From positions 1 to 64,000 of IMG/VR virus record IMGVR_UViG_3300024346_000030: a stretch of DNA of 64,000 nucleotides. The stretch is one strand, 5' to 3'. Below are positions 1 through 9,699 of the stretch, piece after piece (position 1 is the first letter of the stretch; each line of letters begins with the position of its first letter). The notes under the pieces are model-generated. The model had not been told where the DNA came from. It made no database searches and saw only the letters and a list, made by a program, of their open reading frames with translations. Made by a program: the position numbers and the translations under genes. The DNA is from a virus (lineage: Duplodnaviria; Caudoviricetes).

Positions 1-244
1 CTGCAATGCCTGTATGACCATAGCCAATCGTTCGCTTACCACCGCAACAAGTATATGCCTCAGCACGATAACTCTCAAAATGTTTTACGCCTTTTAGCAT
101 ATCATACCAAGCCTTGTTTATGTTAGGCGCAAGCACCGCGCTGTTAGGTTTTACCAGCACAGGTCTGTTAGGCTTCACTAGCACAGGTGTGTTAGATGCC
201 ATGATCGGGGTGATGAGGAGGGCGAGCAGTAGTGTTATTTTCAT
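1..244 (-). CDS. GH24 (T4/P1-type) lysozyme with N-terminal signal/SAR-like segment; runs off the window edge
   Basis: Absent from the ORF track. My translation from ATG 244: MKITLLLALLITPIMASNTPVLVKPNRPVLVKPNSAVLAPNINKAWYDMLKGVKHFESYRAEAYTCCGGKRTIGYGHTGIA. FES..AY.C..G..TIGYGH is the GH24 motif, with triad E57-X8-C66-X5-T72. Confidence 0.85.
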   Translation of the reverse strand, partial: MKITLLLALLITPIMASNTPVLVKPNRPVLVKPNSAVLAPNINKAWYDMLKGVKHFESYRAEAYTCCGGKRTIGYGHTGIA

Positions 245-250
245 GCCCTA

Positions 251-279
251 ATTATACTCTAACAGACGCACATCTGCAA
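251..279 (-). promoter_or_regulatory. sigma70-type promoter of the lysozyme gene
   Basis: TTGCAG-17 nt-TATAAT on the minus strand; the -10 ends 6 nt before the ATG. Confidence 0.75.
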
Positions 280-305
280 GGATTATTTTGTTTTTCTTTA
301 TTACT

Positions 306-424
306 TAACTCATTCAGTATCAATGAGTTACGATTTTTTTAACTTACATAACTCGTTGAGTATCAAGGACTTACGGGCTGGCGGGGGGTGCAGCGCCGTA
401 ACTCGTTCAGTATCAATGAGTTAC
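306..424. repeat. three copies of a ~26-bp imperfect palindrome (consensus TAACTCRTTSAGTATCAAYGAGTTAC)
   Basis: Copies at 306-331, 349-374 and 398-424; a fourth, more degenerate copy at 1889-1914. Confidence 0.9.
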
Positions 425-446
425 AGAGGTTTTTCTGTTAGATGGC

Positions 447-480
447 AAAACCCCGCCCCCCACACTACTAGGGGACGAGG
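447..480 (-). terminator. intrinsic terminator after the methyltransferase gene
   Basis: Minus strand CCTCGTCCCC-loop-GGGGGGCGGGG followed by TTTT. Confidence 0.65.
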
Positions 481-512
481 CACAATTACCACTATAAAAA
501 AGCTGTTAGATG

Positions 513-1037
513 TTAGATGAGCTTGGTGACGTATAGACCTTGATGCTCCCCCTTGAGGCAATCTGTTAGGGTGGTATAGCAGTTGTCGTCTGCTGCTGCC
601 TTAACGTATTCATGCAGTGCGTCCATGTCTAGACTCATCTTCCTTGGTCCGCTTGGGTAGTTCCACACTATACGTGTGCCTGACTTAGCGAAGCGCATGA
701 TGCTATCTAGCGTATCCTCTAACTGATCCTCTGTCTCTTGGACATTCAACACGTTAGACACAAGGATCACTGAGTATTTCTTTTCTATCATGTATTCCGC
801 TATTGATAGATCATAGCCATCGATGCTATACTCTTGTGGTCTTAGTCTGTTAGACCAGTAGTTATCCTTACCACATCCGAAGTCTAACACATCATCCTCA
901 TGCTTACTGATAACGTGATCTAGTGCATAGTGATATACTCTAGCCTTAGGCGTGAAGTTCTTACGGTATGTCTTGGTGCGTGAGTCTTTAGCCGCTTGCC
1001 ACATAGCACCGCCCCAGCTCTTAGGTTCTTCTGTCAT
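513..1037 (-). CDS. class I SAM-dependent methyltransferase
   Basis: VLDFGCGKD motif I, plus a downstream ILVSNVLNVQE motif. Confidence 0.75.
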   Translation of the reverse strand: MTEEPKSWGGAMWQAAKDSRTKTYRKNFTPKARVYHYALDHVISKHEDDVLDFGCGKDNYWSNRLRPQEYSIDGYDLSIAEYMIEKKYSVILVSNVLNVQETEDQLEDTLDSIMRFAKSGTRIVWNYPSGPRKMSLDMDALHEYVKAAADDNCYTTLTDCLKGEHQGLYVTKLI

Positions 1038-1048
1038 GCTGTTAGGTG

Positions 1049-1273
1049 TTAGTGGTTGACGTATTCCATGACCATATCATAACGGAACTGACCATCGTCA
1101 TTCATTTGGTCTAGTTCTTCATCGGTAGCCATGCGACCTTCTACCTTAGCGGTCATGATGTAAGCATCGCAGTAGTCGGGATAGTCTCGATGATCTATGC
1201 CGTCAATTTGGATGTCATTGATTGGGGCGGTATATGCTCCTCTGTCGGAGTGATTGAATGTGAATTGATTCAT
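1049..1273 (-). CDS. small conserved-looking phage hypothetical protein
   Basis: Acidic 74-aa ORF (IDGIDHRDYPDYCDAYI), co-oriented and closely packed with its neighbours. Confidence 0.65.
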   Translation of the reverse strand: MNQFTFNHSDRGAYTAPINDIQIDGIDHRDYPDYCDAYIMTAKVEGRMATDEELDQMNDDGQFRYDMVMEYVNH

Positions 1274-1295
1274 AGTAATTGTATTCTGTTAGTTG

Positions 1296-1580
1296 TTAGT
1301 AGTGAGTTCTTCGGGTTGGCTCGTCAGATAGTAACACGCAAGCCTTATTGATGTCGCCATGTGTGAAGCGTTCTCCGTTTATGGTTATGTAGTATCCACG
1401 GCATGAGACGGCAGAGAAGTTGCCAGATTTAAAGTAGACAGTGGCAGACCATCCAGCCTTATCATCATGGATAGATCTCTCAACGTGTGAGAAGGTAGGA
1501 TACCTGCGGAAGTCAAATGCTGTCATGCTATTGTATCCGAGGTGGAAGGCGTTGAGTGGTGGTGTAGTGTATGCTTTCAT
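1296..1580 (-). CDS. hypothetical protein
   Basis: 94-aa ORF directly downstream of a good promoter (1604-1632). Confidence 0.6.
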   Translation of the reverse strand: MKAYTTPPLNAFHLGYNSMTAFDFRRYPTFSHVERSIHDDKAGWSATVYFKSGNFSAVSCRGYYITINGERFTHGDINKACVLLSDEPTRRTHY

Positions 1581-1603
1581 AGTGTTTTTCTTTCGTTGGT
1601 GAG

Positions 1604-1632
1604 ATTATACGATATTTTTAGTGACCTTGCAA
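1604..1632 (-). promoter_or_regulatory. sigma70-type promoter
   Basis: TTGCAA-17 nt-TATAAT on the minus strand. Confidence 0.75.
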
Positions 1633-1827
1633 GATGTTTCGACACTTATTTTCAGCGTCTCTTTTAGCCTTCATGACCATCTCACGTTCACGCTTGATCT
1701 GGAACTGACGCTCACGCTCAAGCTGACGCTCAAGATTTCTGTTAGCGTTGGCGACCATCTCAGTGAGGATGTGCTGCACGTTAGGATTGGGAACTGGTGA
1801 AAGTGATGTAGTGTTTCTCTCTTGCAT
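1618..1827 (-). CDS. hypothetical coiled-coil protein (start reassigned to 1827)
   Basis: MQERNTT...LERQLERERQ; an extended -10 lies 6 nt upstream of ATG 1827. Confidence 0.6.
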   Translation of the reverse strand: MQERNTTSLSPVPNPNVQHILTEMVANANRNLERQLERERQFQIKREREMVMKAKRDAENKCRNILQGH

Positions 1828-1833
1828 GGTTGT

Positions 1834-1842
1834 ATTATACCA
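1834..1842 (-). promoter_or_regulatory. extended -10 promoter (TGnTATAAT)
   Basis: TGGTATAAT on the minus strand; weak -35. Confidence 0.6.
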
Positions 1843-1888
1843 CCAGAGCAGAAAAATGGAAGCAGAAACTTCATTTATTTTCATGTTT

Positions 1889-1914
1889 TAATCAGCTGAG
1901 TATCAACGAGTTAC
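1889..1914. repeat. fourth copy of the 26-bp palindromic motif
   Basis: TAATCAGCTGAGTATCAACGAGTTAC; its right two-thirds match the copies at 306-424. Confidence 0.7.
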
Positions 1915-1916
1915 AA

Positions 1917-1944
1917 TGTTCCACGGAAAATGTTCCACAGAATA
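1917..1944. promoter_or_regulatory. two abutting 14-bp boxes, TGTTC-N4-GAA(A/T)A
   Basis: TGTTCCACGGAAAA and TGTTCCACAGAATA; each is one mismatch from the TGTTC-N4-GAACA LexA motif described for Verrucomicrobia. Confidence 0.45.
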
Positions 1945-2262
1945 GTGATAAATGCCAAAAAAACGAAAACTAGAGCGTTTTTTGCCCTTAATTGCACCCT
2001 ACCCCATTAAAGCAATCTGTTAGAGTGGTAAATGTGAGATTTCGCGCGGGGGAATCCAATCTCAGTTTATCAACAACGATTCAAGATAAGGTAATGCGGG
2101 GGCGATGCCCCTCCCCCATTAATAAAAAAAAACACAAAAAAATCTAAGCCCAGATTCGTTAAGTGAAAAAAATCGGTGGGGGTATTTTAAAAAAAGGAAA
2201 ATATAATAAGCTTTAGGCAAGAATAAGATTAAATAATTCATATGCCGCGAAAACATTGAGTC

Positions 2263-2290
2263 TTGACAATAATAAAAAATAAAATATAAT
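2263..2290 (+). promoter_or_regulatory. consensus sigma70 promoter
   Basis: TTGACA-16 nt-TATAAT, 29 nt before ATG 2320. Confidence 0.8.
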
Positions 2291-7839: not shown

Positions 7840-9699
7840 ATGAGTTGGGAAAAAGGAATACAAGAATCTAGAAATAGGTTCCCAGATATCAATAAAGAGA
7901 TTCTGGAGATAGATGGATACATAGAAGAAGAAGAGGCAAAACTATTGCTTTATAAATTCTTAAGACAGAACCCATCTTTTGCTGCTGAGTTTATTACTGG
8001 AGTAAAATTGTTCCCTTTCCAGCATATGTCCATAAAGGCCATGATGGAGACCGATTACTTTTTGGGGATATGGAGTCGTGGAATGTCCAAAAGCTTCTCT
8101 ACGGCCGTTTTTGCGCTATTAGACGCTATTTTAAACCAAGGTGTTCACATTGGAATCATATCTAAGTCTTTTCGACAGTCAAAAATGATATTTACGAAGA
8201 TGGAAGAGATAGCTGCGAGCCCAAAAGCCGAATTTCTTTCTCAATGTATTACGAGGGTATCAAAAGCTAATGATCAGTGGGTCATGGAGGTCGGTAGAAG
8301 TAAAATTACCGCCCTACCTCTTGGTGATGGAGAAAAACTTCGAGGCTTCCGTTTTGAGAGGATGATTATTGACGAGCTATTGCTCATGCCAGAGAAGGTT
8401 TTGAATGAGGTTATCATGCCGTTTCTATCTGTTATTAAAAATCCGACAGAGAGGCAGGAGATTCATGATGTGGAAACAGAGATGATTAAACAGGGTAAGA
8501 TGAAAGAGGAGGATAGACATAAGTGGCCGAACAACAAAATTATTGGTTTGTCTTCTGCATCTTATAGGTTTGAACATTTATATAAGATGTATTGTCAGTA
8601 TGAGTCATTGATTCTTAATGAAAACGAGCAAGACAAGGCTCATAGAACCATAATGCACTTTAGTTATGATTGTGCGCCGCCCCAACTATACGATCAAAAC
8701 CTTATTGATCAAGCAAAGGCTACAATGAGTCAGTCTCAGTTCGACCGAGAGTTTATGGCTGTATTTACAGACGATAGTTCTGGTTATTTCAAGGTGAGTA
8801 AGATGGCCGCGTGTACAATTCCAGATGGAGAAGGTCAATGCGTAGAAGTCAAGGGTCAGCCTGGCGATGAATATATATTAGCCTTTGACCCTTCTTGGTC
8901 TGAGAGTGATGGGTCCGACGATTTTGCTATGATGGTTATTAAGCTTAATAAAGAAACAAAAAAGGGTACAATAGTTCATAGTTATGCTTTATCAGGGTCT
9001 AACCTGAAAACTCACATTAACTACATGGCTTATATACTGGAAAACTTCAATATTGTTTCTGTGGTTGGTGACTACAATGGTGGAGTTCAGTTCTTAAACT
9101 CATGTAATGAGAGTAGTATTTTTAAAGATAAAAAAATAAAACTAAACTTGATTGATGCTGATTTAGACGATCATCAAAACTACGATAAAGGTCTCCGTGA
9201 TTTAAAGAGGCAGTATAACAAAGACAACAGGACTTTTGTGTTTTTAAGAAAGCCAAGTTCTAAGTGGATACGTTATGCAAACGAACTTCTTCAGGCTTCT
9301 TTTGACCACAAGAGAATATTCTTTGCTGGAGCAGCTATGGATGAAGATTACAACAAGCAAAGGAAGTCCAATATTCCAATTAAAAAATTAAAATTTATAA
9401 ACAACTATAATGAATCATCTGAGGCCGCAAAAATGATTGATTTTGTTGAGCATCAAAAAGATATGATGGACTTGGTGAAAGTTGAGTGTGCTATGGTTCA
9501 GGTTTCTACTTCAACACAAGGAACTCAAAGTTTCGATCTGCCTTTGAACTTAAGAAAACAAAGAGGTGCGGATAAAGCAAGAAAAGACTCATATTCTGCT
9601 TTAATACTTGGCAACTGGATGTTGAATGTATACTATGATATGACTGATGATAAAATCGAAACTAATCAAGGTACATTCACGCCTATGTTCATTGATTGA
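7840..9699 (+). CDS. terL: terminase large subunit
   Basis: SRGMSKS Walker A, LRGFRFERMIIDE Walker B, AFDPS RNase H-like nuclease, KDSYSA; lies upstream of the portal. Confidence 0.9.
   Translation: MSWEKGIQESRNRFPDINKEILEIDGYIEEEEAKLLLYKFLRQNPSFAAEFITGVKLFPFQHMSIKAMMETDYFLGIWSRGMSKSFSTAVFALLDAILNQGVHIGIISKSFRQSKMIFTKMEEIAASPKAEFLSQCITRVSKANDQWVMEVGRSKITALPLGDGEKLRGFRFERMIIDELLLMPEKVLNEVIMPFLSVIKNPTERQEIHDVETEMIKQGKMKEEDRHKWPNNKIIGLSSASYRFEHLYKMYCQYESLILNENEQDKAHRTIMHFSYDCAPPQLYDQNLIDQAKATMSQSQFDREFMAVFTDDSSGYFKVSKMAACTIPDGEGQCVEVKGQPGDEYILAFDPSWSESDGSDDFAMMVIKLNKETKKGTIVHSYALSGSNLKTHINYMAYILENFNIVSVVGDYNGGVQFLNSCNESSIFKDKKIKLNLIDADLDDHQNYDKGLRDLKRQYNKDNRTFVFLRKPSSKWIRYANELLQASFDHKRIFFAGAAMDEDYNKQRKSNIPIKKLKFINNYNESSEAAKMIDFVEHQKDMMDLVKVECAMVQVSTSTQGTQSFDLPLNLRKQRGADKARKDSYSALILGNWMLNVYYDMTDDKIETNQGTFTPMFID

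Follow-up and report, generated by a model that had tools for sequence, protein, structure and literature searches.

A short DNA word, CTAACA, saturates a single block of an uncultured marine phage genome and is maintained there by selection on the nucleotides themselves. With a probability of roughly 40%, we interpret it as a Chi-type word that would be read by the host and that clusters at the packaging-proximal, probably first-entering end of the phage DNA, comparable to the Chi clusters of the phages LLS, MD8 and P1.

The window is a stretch of 64,000 nucleotides from this phage, whose genome measures ~125 kb. On the plus strand of positions 1-2040, TGTTAG occurred 15 times (at 121, 142, 166, 190, 436, 504, 511, 564, 848, 1040, 1047, 1287, 1294, 1740 and 2018), versus two copies on the minus strand (259 and 884). 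The 2000 dinucleotide-preserving shuffles of positions 1-2040 contained 1.09 ± 1.03 plus-strand copies, with a maximum of 6. The full CTGTTAG was present ten times on the plus strand, versus a shuffled mean of 0.24 and a maximum of 3. The other 62 kb carried TGTTAG 14 times on the plus and 10 times on the minus strand, CTGTTAG not once on the plus strand, and CTAACAG three times on the plus strand, all at or below expectation. These counts bear out the first-pass annotation, which had described the enrichment (about 15 versus 2, ten full copies, where chance would give well under 2 per strand) and the rarity of the motif elsewhere; its positions were all correct except 2019, which is really 2018. 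Because all genes of this stretch lie on the minus strand, the word reads Y-CTAACA-G on the sense strand. It occurred in intergenic DNA, as had been noticed earlier, and also in stop codons, and the claim of more than one reading frame was confirmed for CTA-ACA and nCT-AAC-A. The KPN repeats of the lysozyme N-terminus, which the earlier remark saw as shaped by the word, contained four copies in PVLVKPN linkers. The individual features are as follows; the promoter at 250-278 and the terminator-like hairpin at 447-480 were read directly from the sequence.

1-2040, minus strand: share of the word-saturated, higher-GC block that lies in the window, from word counts and GC
121-195, minus strand: four sense copies in frame nCT-AAC-A (plus-strand positions 121, 142, 166, 190) inside the linker repeats of a secreted GH24 lysozyme, kept in relatives L001 and L005
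250-278, minus strand: sigma70-type promoter TTGCAG-N17-TATAAT; the lysozyme ATG (244) follows after 6 nt, a design that recurs throughout the block, and the lysozyme mRNA is probably leaderless
259-264, plus strand: opposite-orientation copy, in the spacer of the lysozyme promoter
291-425, minus strand: three copies of a 27-nt dyad, GTAACTCRTTGATACTGAAYGAGTTAC, with a fourth at 1889-1915
436-516, minus strand: three sense copies in the gap that separates the methyltransferase-like gene from the lysozyme gene; the TAA stop of ORF 513-1037 falls within 511-516, which forms a tandem pair with 504-509 (7 nt apart), and 436-441 lies just before the first stem-loop
447-480, minus strand: intrinsic-terminator-like GC hairpin and T run after the methyltransferase-like gene
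564-853, minus strand: two in-CDS copies in the methyltransferase-like ORF, 564-569 as CTA-ACA and 848-853 as nCT-AAC-A
884-889, plus strand: second opposite-orientation copy, inside a CDS
1040-1052, minus strand: two copies in tandem, 7 nt apart; the TAA stop of ORF 1049-1273 lies in 1047-1052, and only 2 nt separate the end of 1040-1045 from the ATG of ORF 513-1037
1287-1299, minus strand: two copies in tandem, 7 nt apart; the TAA stop of ORF 1296-1580 lies in 1294-1299, and 1287-1292 is 13 nt before the ATG of ORF 1049-1273
1604-1632, minus strand: sigma70-type promoter TTGCAA-N17-TATAAT for the operon ORF94-ORF74-methyltransferase
1740-1745, minus strand: in-CDS copy GCT-AAC-AGA in a small ORF that ends at 1618 and whose likely leaderless start is the ATG at 1828-1830
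1915-1942, minus strand: two direct GTGGAACAT boxes with a period of 13-14 nt, upstream of a promoter; GTGGAACAT is the second enriched word of the block
2018-2023, minus strand: outermost copy, at the block boundary, within a 29-nt direct repeat of 548-576
2041-2319, no strand: block boundary, A-tract-rich and non-coding, where the word and the higher GC both end
2263-2290, plus strand: perfect rightward TTGACA-N16-TATAAT inside the boundary region
Past the boundary, plus strand: genes for T5orf172, HNH and a sigma-like protein, then the large terminase (7840-9699)

The saturated early region described in the first-pass annotation was confirmed, but its extent of 2 kb was not: of the word-rich block, only the final ~2 kb fall in the window, while its remainder lies beyond the left window edge; in the relatives G001 and G002 the block totals ~9-10 kb, or ~7-8% of the genome. 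The edges of the block were sharp, and every contig continued through both boundaries. The word was confined to one block in every close relative, a localisation that the annotation had proposed to check in related genomes, and in G001 and G002 the flanks were nearly empty of CTAACA. The block had a GC content of 44-48%, versus 35% elsewhere (0.44 versus 0.36 in the window). It directly adjoins the HNH/terminase module and contains ~8 short sigma70/leaderless operons, all directed inward from the HNH/terminase side. Its sigma70-type promoters 6 nt before leaderless ATGs and its ORFan genes give the block the appearance of early-region DNA. The only recognised block proteins were GP88, DUF932, a methyltransferase-like domain and the lysozyme, and a search among the block proteins for a candidate reader of the word recognised nothing beyond these four. 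Cultured relatives gave no DNA match, and protein matches of only 25-30% identity.

Over the full block, the word was the most over-represented 6-, 7- and 8-mer, at a density of ~5 per kb. CTAACAG occurred 29 times versus 0.8 expected, with four copies on the other strand, and CTAACA was distributed over the sense and antisense strands as 49:7 and 47:9 in two relatives. Within coding sequences, 18 copies in the first relative compared with 4.8 ± 2.0 (maximum 11) in 1000 codon-aware shuffles, and 20 copies in the second with 4.0 ± 1.8; the codon-aware background suggested earlier thus left the enrichment intact. Non-coding DNA of the block contained 22-24 copies, versus 1.6-1.7 expected from dinucleotide shuffles.

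The copies were also conserved. Between relatives that are 77% identical, 28 of the 34 aligned copies (82%) were retained, versus 30% of random hexamers, and identity was 0.89-0.97 in the core of the word versus ~0.75 in its flanks. In a 255-aa gene, the L-T encoded by the word replaces the M-N and V-I of word-less orthologues, while the flanks vary synonymously. The codon-aware enrichment, the retention of 28 of 34 copies and the synonymous variation around a fixed word support the conclusion that purifying selection acts on the nucleotide word and not on the protein, as the first-pass annotation had supposed. It is very unlikely that the word has no function of its own and is a by-product of biased mutation, repair or gene conversion, or of recurrent local duplication, hitch-hiking in a fast-evolving region. 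Tandem 7-nt duplicates are common, as 7-bp tandem footprints would be, and the word is limited to one lineage. However, the 82% versus 30% conservation and the displaced amino acids speak against such a by-product, and a host-wide mutational bias would mark the whole genome instead of one block.

Nine of the 23 stop codons in the block (~40%) were cTAAca, i.e., part of the word. Further copies occupied terminator loops and surrounded tRNA-Met and the mini-tmRNA, directly abutting the 5' and 3' ends of both, and one base-paired copy lay in the free P2 helix of the mini-tmRNA. Many ATGs were preceded by the word at 2-13 nt, in genomes without Shine-Dalgarno sequences. Such a distribution is compatible with a signal for which the number of copies counts more than their exact positions. 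The same stops, starts, RNA ends and terminator loops would suit a sense-strand RNA signal that punctuates and times early transcripts as a cleavage or binding site. It would separate cistrons, release tRNA and mini-tmRNA, shorten the life of early mRNAs and create near-leaderless downstream cistrons (CUAACA-NN-AUG), functionally like the GGAG target of T4 RegB. The word also lies on the sense strand in both phage groups that carry it, whatever the orientation of the terminase. Nevertheless, we consider an RNA signal unlikely: antisense copies were significantly enriched too (3-5x), whereas a RegB-like signal would be confined to RNA and the sense strand; copies within coding sequences were enriched and conserved instead of avoided; the P2 copy is base-paired; and in one unrelated phage, G311, the word also fills the late structural genes. 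An apparent avoidance on the sense strand outside the block (5 versus 17) was non-specific, with similar depletion in the word-less G310 and none in G002.

A further possible role concerns the build of the block. Its GTAACTCRTTGATACTGAAYGAGTTAC dyads form the stem-loop part of PeSL-like regulatory cassettes, in which stem-loops are combined with a strong sigma70 promoter, and the block is highly mosaic between relatives. The word could therefore be a junction linker of a hyperplastic region, i.e., a microhomology or nuclease target for the exchange of small-gene modules, especially as tandem pairs at gene ends, which would extend the cassette shuffling of T4-type phages (PMC2839356, PMC4122927). 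In the comparison of G1 with G2, five of the 22 homology end-points fell within 10 nt of the word versus two expected, a test that is biased because alignment ends are drawn towards any conserved word. Several junctions in this comparison were exactly of the form unrelated sequence / TTACTAACAGCnTCTAACAG / homologous sequence, and two homing-type nuclease genes (T5orf172 and HNH) flank the block. Such a linker function nonetheless appears improbable. A length of 6-8 bp is short for recombination, and neither the conserved single copies within genes nor the genome-wide word of G311 would be explained. Moreover, the dyads are also present in word-less relatives, where the cassettes shuffle equally well: the block cassettes are of the PeSL shuffling type, but CTAACA is not part of the ancestral cassette.

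Several other candidates were rejected. The mini-tmRNA might have served as a guide, its P2 helix being TCTAACAG/CTGTTAGA in G001, G002 and L014; this was dismissed because L015 has another P2 sequence and no flanking copies, yet a word-saturated block. The word fits the integron attC consensus RYYYAAC/GTTRRRY. In attC, however, inverted core-site pairs make up a folded site of 57-141 nt, whereas the copies here are direct and not inverted pairs; the tyrosine recombinase domain PF00589 was not found in the four contigs searched. Pseudo-promoters of the form TTGACA-N17-TCTAAC were absent here. A promoter or an extended motif was rejected, as the logo showed unconserved flanks except for Y at -1 and G/A at +6. 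A GGCGACC word in L015, considered as a second signal, is a GDH-repeat protein.

The distribution of the word among phages pointed to a reader outside the phage lineage. Distant relatives with the same cassettes lacked the word, as expected for a host-specific signal, and no substitute word was found in them. Conversely, three unrelated phages of ~55 kb (G311, G312 and G313), which have only the lysozyme gene in common with the 125 kb phage, carried the word genome-wide. In coding sequences of G311 the two orientations occurred 87 times versus 24.9 expected and 44 times versus 15.5 expected, i.e., they were enriched 3.5x and 2.8x. The sharing of a word by unrelated phages points to a host-encoded reader rather than one that belongs to a phage lineage.

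The defining property of Chi is over-representation with replichore skew in the host genome. The host searches covered 301 Verrucomicrobiota genomes, in which CTAACAG and TCTAACAR were not enriched, and five Bacteroidota genomes, in which the octamer was at control level genome-wide. A host hunt via triple TCTAACAG arrays in bacterial genomes returned mostly 8-bp microsatellites or local repeats. A literature search by motif string returned primers only.

In the 125 kb phage, 5'-CTGTTAG-3' lies on the structural-gene strand. This orientation would be the active one for a RecBCD-type enzyme that enters from the terminase-side boundary, provided that the DNA end is located there, and it agrees with the pattern known from LLS and MD8 (PMC12315714). 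The raw ratios of ~5:1 to 7.5:1, however, overstate the selected polarity because the opposite orientation is also enriched, by 3-5x in non-coding DNA, where the factors for the two orientations were 7-15x and 4-5x. Base composition accounts for part of the raw polarity, with ~3:1 for the sense strand predicted from background alone, and a sense bias of 1.6-3x remained in non-coding DNA after correction. Relative to its terminase and structural genes, G311 favours the orientation opposite to that of the 125 kb phage, while in both phages the commoner orientation is the sense strand. This agrees better with a bias linked to transcription or driven by composition, unless G311 uses headful packaging. 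The orientation dependence proposed in the first-pass annotation may thus be less than strict, given that both orientations are enriched and that the G311 majority is reversed relative to the terminase.

The enrichment of both orientations, in coding DNA of G311 and in non-coding DNA, and the background bias of about 3:1 would also be compatible with a double-stranded 'self' word that acts in either orientation. Its reader would be a host or phage factor other than RecBCD/AddAB that binds or surveys DNA, for instance a nucleoid or anti-silencing protein, or a defence that leaves tagged DNA alone. Its polarity would arise mainly since CTAACA costs less than TGTTAG on a sense strand rich in A and poor in G, and an AT-seeking silencer would be easier to escape for a block of higher GC. 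We regard this as unlikely in view of the residual sense bias, the lack of a word-enriched genome among the 301 Verrucomicrobiota and five Bacteroidota, and a density in the phage ~10x that of any reported host watermark. Quite improbable, in our assessment, is the more specific proposal that CTAACA is the tag of an undescribed host self/non-self system, distinct from RecBCD/AddAB, in which a surveillance or silencing factor spares or activates Y-CTAAC-A-R-rich DNA. Unrelated phages would counterfeit this tag, either genome-wide where they lack a countermeasure or just in those parts needed before takeover proteins are made.

Under the Chi-type interpretation, Y-CTAACA-R (5'-CTGTTAGR-3' on the structural-gene strand) would be a DNA-level word whose reader is a host factor, most likely a helicase-nuclease of the RecBCD/AddAB type. 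The phage has gathered it at every position that would be cheap: TAA stops, gene junctions, terminator loops, RNA-gene flanks, a free RNA helix, tolerant codon pairs and linker peptides. The copies are limited to the ~10 kb block of host-promoter, leaderless, early-type operons at the packaging-proximal end. We infer that the block is a DNA end, being packaged last and entering first or forming a terminal repeat, and would therefore be naked to an end-processing nuclease before phage proteins exist. An enzyme moving in from that end would meet the word from its 3' side many times and might be switched from degradation to RecA loading, so that the DNA would be protected and circularisation or concatemer formation helped. 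The smaller unrelated phages of the same gene pool carry the word genome-wide in both orientations, as phage P1 carries Chi.

Several observations count against this Chi-type interpretation. Among them are the contigs that continue through both block boundaries, the missing enrichment in the 301 Verrucomicrobiota and five Bacteroidota genomes, and the reversed majority orientation in G311 relative to its terminase. Copies cluster at junctions and stops, which a pure Chi model explains only as 'cheap positions', and mosaic junctions fall on tandem pairs. The word-less relatives have no substitute word, and known Chi clusters have densities far below the ~5 per kb of the block. To our knowledge, G-richness is common to all Chi sequences described so far. 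It is not obvious that the 'no Rec module, many Chi' rule applies, given an exonuclease-like gene beside two unknown ORFs in G311 (all genomes being incomplete). The Chi analogue proposed by the first-pass annotation is thus partly supported, and its translocase-guide and protective-protein variants are indistinguishable from Chi in this analysis.

If the Chi-type interpretation is true, CTGTTAGR would be the candidate Chi of an uncultured marine host and could be used to find that host. The clustering of host recombination signals at an exposed genome end, described for lambdoid phages and P1, would then also occur, in an extreme form, in a large marine lineage unrelated to them. A six-letter signal would have reshaped a linker peptide and an RNA helix as well as Leu-Thr codon pairs and the choice of stop codons. 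With a different reader, a word common to unrelated phages would instead mark an unknown host-phage recognition system.

Among known systems, T5 carries its first-step-transfer DNA with the pre-early genes in a 10 kb terminal repeat. The block resembles it in that ~8% of a ~120 kb siphophage genome consists of small host-takeover-type genes with host promoters and a repeat-rich non-coding neighbour. Terminal repetition and stepwise injection, which are features of T5, would be putative for the block; it has no sequence relationship to T5, and we know of no comparable word in that phage. The DUS and USS watermarks are words of bacterial chromosomes that are tied to competence. Like these, CTAACA is a short non-palindromic word that occurs in several frames and both orientations against codon habits, but its carriers are phages, its density is ~10x higher, and in one phage it is confined to 8% of the genome.

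The RegB/S1 target of T4, GGAG(A-rich), is likewise a short motif concentrated in early transcripts, especially in intergenic and initiation regions (PMC1702504, PMC3014915). That motif acts in RNA only and doubles as a Shine-Dalgarno sequence, whereas here both DNA strands are enriched and copies occur in coding sequences; no nuclease candidate for a RegB-like role was found. As in the PeSL of T4-type hyperplastic regions (Arbiol et al. 2010, PMC2839356; PMC4122927), small ORFan genes are split by cassettes that combine a stem-loop with a strong sigma70 promoter, and close relatives differ by reshuffled gene content. PeSL are composite elements of ~50 nt; the 6-8-nt word, in contrast, is an extra layer that also occurs inside genes and is missing from relatives with the same cassettes.

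A further close parallel is formed by LLS of E. coli, MD8 of P. aeruginosa (GCTGGCGC) and P1, which have terminally clustered Chi and no RecBCD inhibitors (Zheng et al. 2025, PMC12315714; Bobay et al. 2013, PMC3784561). In LLS and MD8, Chi is the commonest octamer, with right-end clusters at 20:3 and 32:0, and lies on the top strand in the orientation active for an enzyme entering from the right end (PMC12315714). Bobay et al. found Chi concentrated between the origin and the packaging site (PMC3784561). The block differs from these phages in that CTGTTAGR is not G-rich, that a hexamer core occurs at ~5 per kb instead of an octamer at ~1 per kb, and that the word is absolutely confined to a block of early-type operons with a distinct GC content, where it includes 40% of the stops. 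Like Chi in LLS, MD8 and P1, however, the word is a short commonest oligomer, strongly one-stranded (49:7 here, 20:3 and 32:0 there), that lies just before the packaging site on the structural-gene strand and for which codon usage is an insufficient explanation.

The hexamer CTAACA, hereafter the word, reads TGTTAG or, in its longer form, CTGTTAG on the plus strand of the window. Within positions 1-2040, the plus strand has 15 copies of TGTTAG and the minus strand two, as counted in the first-pass annotation, whose listed positions were all right except for 2019 (which should be 2018). The chance level was 1.09 ± 1.03 (at most 6 in any of 2000 dinucleotide-preserving shuffles), while CTGTTAG occurred 10 times versus 0.24 expected from the same shuffles. 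The word was indeed rare in the other 62 kb, with 14 and 10 copies of TGTTAG on the two strands and no plus-strand CTGTTAG. Since the genes of 1-1890 are on the minus strand, the word is Y-CTAACA-G on the sense strand.

Features at the left end of the window
1-1890, minus strand: all real genes, i.e., a secreted GH24 lysozyme, a methyltransferase-like ORF and three ORFans
250-425, 1604-1632 and 1836-1942: PeSL-like cassettes with 27-nt dyads, paired GTGGAACAT and a sigma70 promoter (also throughout loci L007/L008)
right of ~2040, plus strand throughout: T5orf172/zinc-ribbon gene, HNH nuclease gene, sigma-like gene and terminase gene
2263-2290, plus strand: perfect TTGACA-N16-TATAAT promoter, 30 nt ahead of the T5orf172/zinc-ribbon gene

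Block proteins were used to recover IMG/VR relatives, six at first and more afterwards. In the whole contigs of two of them, G001 and G002, the word was limited to a single block of ~9-10 kb, which confirms its localisation. This block has a GC content of 44-48% versus ~35% in the flanks, and contains 47-49 sense and 7-9 antisense copies of CTAACA versus almost none in the 10-kb flanks on either side. The window begins within the block and covers its last 2 kb only, up to a right boundary at ~2040. The promoter at 2263-2290 faces away from the block, and hence the boundary is a divergent promoter region. A 29-nt direct repeat (548-576 and 2002-2030; 86% identical), with the word in both copies, occurs at the methyltransferase-like gene's 3' end and again at the boundary.

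The window is part of the genome of an uncultured siphophage, ~125 kb in size according to CheckV estimates of related contigs. It encodes the large terminase, a 2590-aa tape-measure protein, a ribonucleotide reductase, a DnaB-like helicase, a DnaE-type polymerase, a Lon-like protease and its own sigma-like factor. A search for a close cultured relative found none. Shine-Dalgarno sequences were found nowhere in the genome, and many genes have TATAAT 6-7 nt ahead of the ATG. This combination indicates that the probable host is a bacterium poor in SD sequences whose -10 elements are canonical. At 2320-64000, upstream regions are A-rich, with (G)TATAAT at the same distance (e.g. 3843, 10115, 36655 and 59634).

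The block comprises ~8 short operons, every one directed away from the terminase side. Each is preceded by a repeated cassette of one or two 27-nt dyads (GTAACTCRTTGATACTGAAYGAGTTAC), two GTGGAACAT boxes and a promoter (TTGCnn-N17-(TGn)TATAAT), with the ATG 6 nt further on, and the mRNAs are therefore probably leaderless. The exact 6-nt distance in the PeSL-like cassettes amounts to a systematic leaderless design. The paired boxes resemble DnaA boxes, and the dyad includes an IHF-consensus-like TAACTCATTGATA. The cassettes are close to the PeSL cassettes of T4-type hyperplastic regions (PMC2839356), and the gene content of the block is mosaic between relatives, in line with PeSL-type regions. 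More distant relatives (DUF932 protein identity 52% and 43%) showed neither enrichment of CTAACA nor a substitute word. They share the twin-dyad and leaderless-promoter cassettes and the higher-GC block, and hence the word is a lineage-specific addition. The blocks of relatives also encode two RNA genes.

RNA genes in the blocks of relatives
L001:8404-8473, L005:8621-8689, L014:8902-8970 and L015:8008-8088: mini-tmRNA of 70-81 nt (Rfam RF00023), past the left edge of the window
L007:11370-11444 (minus strand) and L014:12415-12487: tRNA-Met, the final gene of the block

The mini-tmRNA consists of the tRNA-like domain alone, with a G3:U70 acceptor stem and a T-arm (RF00023, E 1e-12 to 6e-19).

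Selection on the DNA itself, as proposed from the window alone, is supported by codon-aware shuffles, by the conservation of copies and by replacements in the DUF932 gene. In the full block of the two relatives, 18 and 20 copies lie within coding sequences, versus 4.8 ± 2.0 and 4.0 ± 1.8 after synonymous-codon shuffling, and CTAACA encodes 9 of 22 and 12 of 17 Leu-Thr pairs. As stated previously, the word occurs in intergenic DNA and in two reading frames, which are both of the permitted frames. Between G001 and G002 (77% identical), 28 of the 34 aligned copies are kept versus 30% of random hexamers, and core positions are 0.89-0.97 identical versus ~0.75 in the flanks. In the DUF932 gene (255 aa), the word turned M-N and V-I of word-less orthologues into L-T, and it is invariant while adjacent synonymous sites vary. 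Next to these numbers, we regard a non-functional by-product as very unlikely.

The claimed strand polarity holds in part. The sense strand is favoured, with 22-24 copies versus 1.6-1.7 expected in non-coding DNA of the block. The opposite orientation is also enriched, however (4-5 versus ~0.9-1.0, non-coding DNA), and the raw ratio of ~5:1 to 7.5:1 is too high. Given a sense strand rich in A and poor in G, ~3:1 for CTAACA is expected from background alone, so that the selected polarity is roughly 2-3 fold in the block. An orientation-free 'self' word would be enriched on both strands, and with this remaining bias it seems unlikely. We tentatively predict, with a probability of about 0.4, that the word is a Chi-type signal, read by a host helicase-nuclease of the RecBCD/AddAB type.

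The information lies in the core CTAACA alone, and Y is favoured at -1 and G/A at +6. The word, as cTAAca, supplies 9 of the 23 stop codons in the block. Copies lie 2-13 nt ahead of downstream ATGs and in terminator loops, and a second copy is frequent 7, 10 or 11 nt downstream of the first. Copies also abut both ends of the tRNA and the mini-tmRNA: CTAACATCTAACAG stops 2 nt short of the 5' end of tRNA-Met, and TCTAACA follows its 3' end, where CCA is incompletely encoded. In three genomes the word brackets the mini-tmRNA gene and forms its P2 helix (TCTAACAG/CTGTTAGA); the P2 of L015 is different and longer. Such positions recall an RNA punctuation or decay signal, which we consider quite unlikely given the enrichment in both orientations. 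Recombination linkers are similarly doubtful. Mosaic junctions fell on tandem copies in 5 of 22 cases versus 2 expected in a biased test, which is also a weakness of the Chi reading. One operon is word-free (L007 12424-13496; G001 block coordinates 7905-9400), and encodes a 104-aa ORF, a GP88-family protein and a 114-aa ORF. The GP88 orthologue in L015, 86% identical, carries three words, a difference that indicates putative recent exchange and ongoing gain. Just beyond the word-rich block, L015:2829-3677 encodes a 282-aa protein with GGCGACCAC repeats of ~12-nt period (Gly-Asp-His-x).

A lysozyme search yielded three further phages with the word, namely G311, G312 and G313; their genomes measure ~46-55 kb, and in each a single strand carries all the genes. 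G311 (L162-L164, IMGVR_UViG_3300047369_000677) is an unrelated siphophage of ~55 kb that has only the lysozyme gene in common with the 125 kb phage. The word spans its whole genome, including the structural genes, and CTAACA is its top hexamer, with 117 sense and 48 antisense copies versus ~14 expected per strand. Copies within coding sequences numbered 87 versus 24.9 ± 4.6 and 44 versus 15.5 ± 3.7 in the two orientations, and sense copies in non-coding DNA 23 versus 3.2. Between genes, the word typically precedes ~10 nt of A-rich sequence, after which the ATG comes. A gene exchanged between two unrelated lineages, together with a shared word, suggests that a host common to both encodes the reader.

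Two results weaken the Chi reading. Relative to the terminase gene, most copies in G311 point the opposite way from the majority in the large phage; in both phages the majority is on the sense strand. Moreover, the bacterial genomes sampled (301 Verrucomicrobiota and 5 Bacteroidota) showed no enrichment of the word. Several marine Bacteroidota (Kordia, Crocinitomicaceae, Ancylomarina and Gangjinia; L027, L075, L079, L095, L099 and others) contain perfect intergenic microsatellite arrays of (TCTAACAG)5-9, outside which the octamer occurs at control frequency. A Spartobacteria MAG contig (L140, G009:C45:8000-27000) has a ~60-nt intergenic element (cttcCTAACAGtctaacagtcttcagCCTAACAGcctcactt) six times, between small ORFs of either orientation, with ~1 kb spacing in five of six intervals. 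Many contig ends also have the word of this element ~113 nt away, which suggests a dispersed repeat.

The word would act by number, tolerate any position and work at the DNA level on both strands with a bias, which fits the accumulation of Chi in phages. It would also fit the Chi pattern in being restricted to a lineage, in recurring in unrelated phages and, for the large phage, in keeping to the block beside the packaging genes. Chi is the commonest octamer in phages LLS and P1, with a 20:3 ratio in the active orientation and a right-end cluster in LLS, and the Pseudomonas Chi reaches 32:0 in MD8 (PMC12315714). Bobay et al. found that, in lambdoid phages without recombinases, Chi clusters in the interval from the origin to the packaging site (PMC3784561). 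When the map follows the lambda convention (terminase on the left), the block falls at its right end, and the structural-gene strand reads 5'-CTGTTAG-3'; by analogy, this is the active orientation for an enzyme that comes in from the right. The block size (~7-8% of the genome), the inward host-type promoters and the ORFans are reminiscent of the early regions in the terminal repeats of T5 and SPO1. If the block were a terminal repeat, word-stimulated recombination between the repeats would circularise the genome, as in P1.
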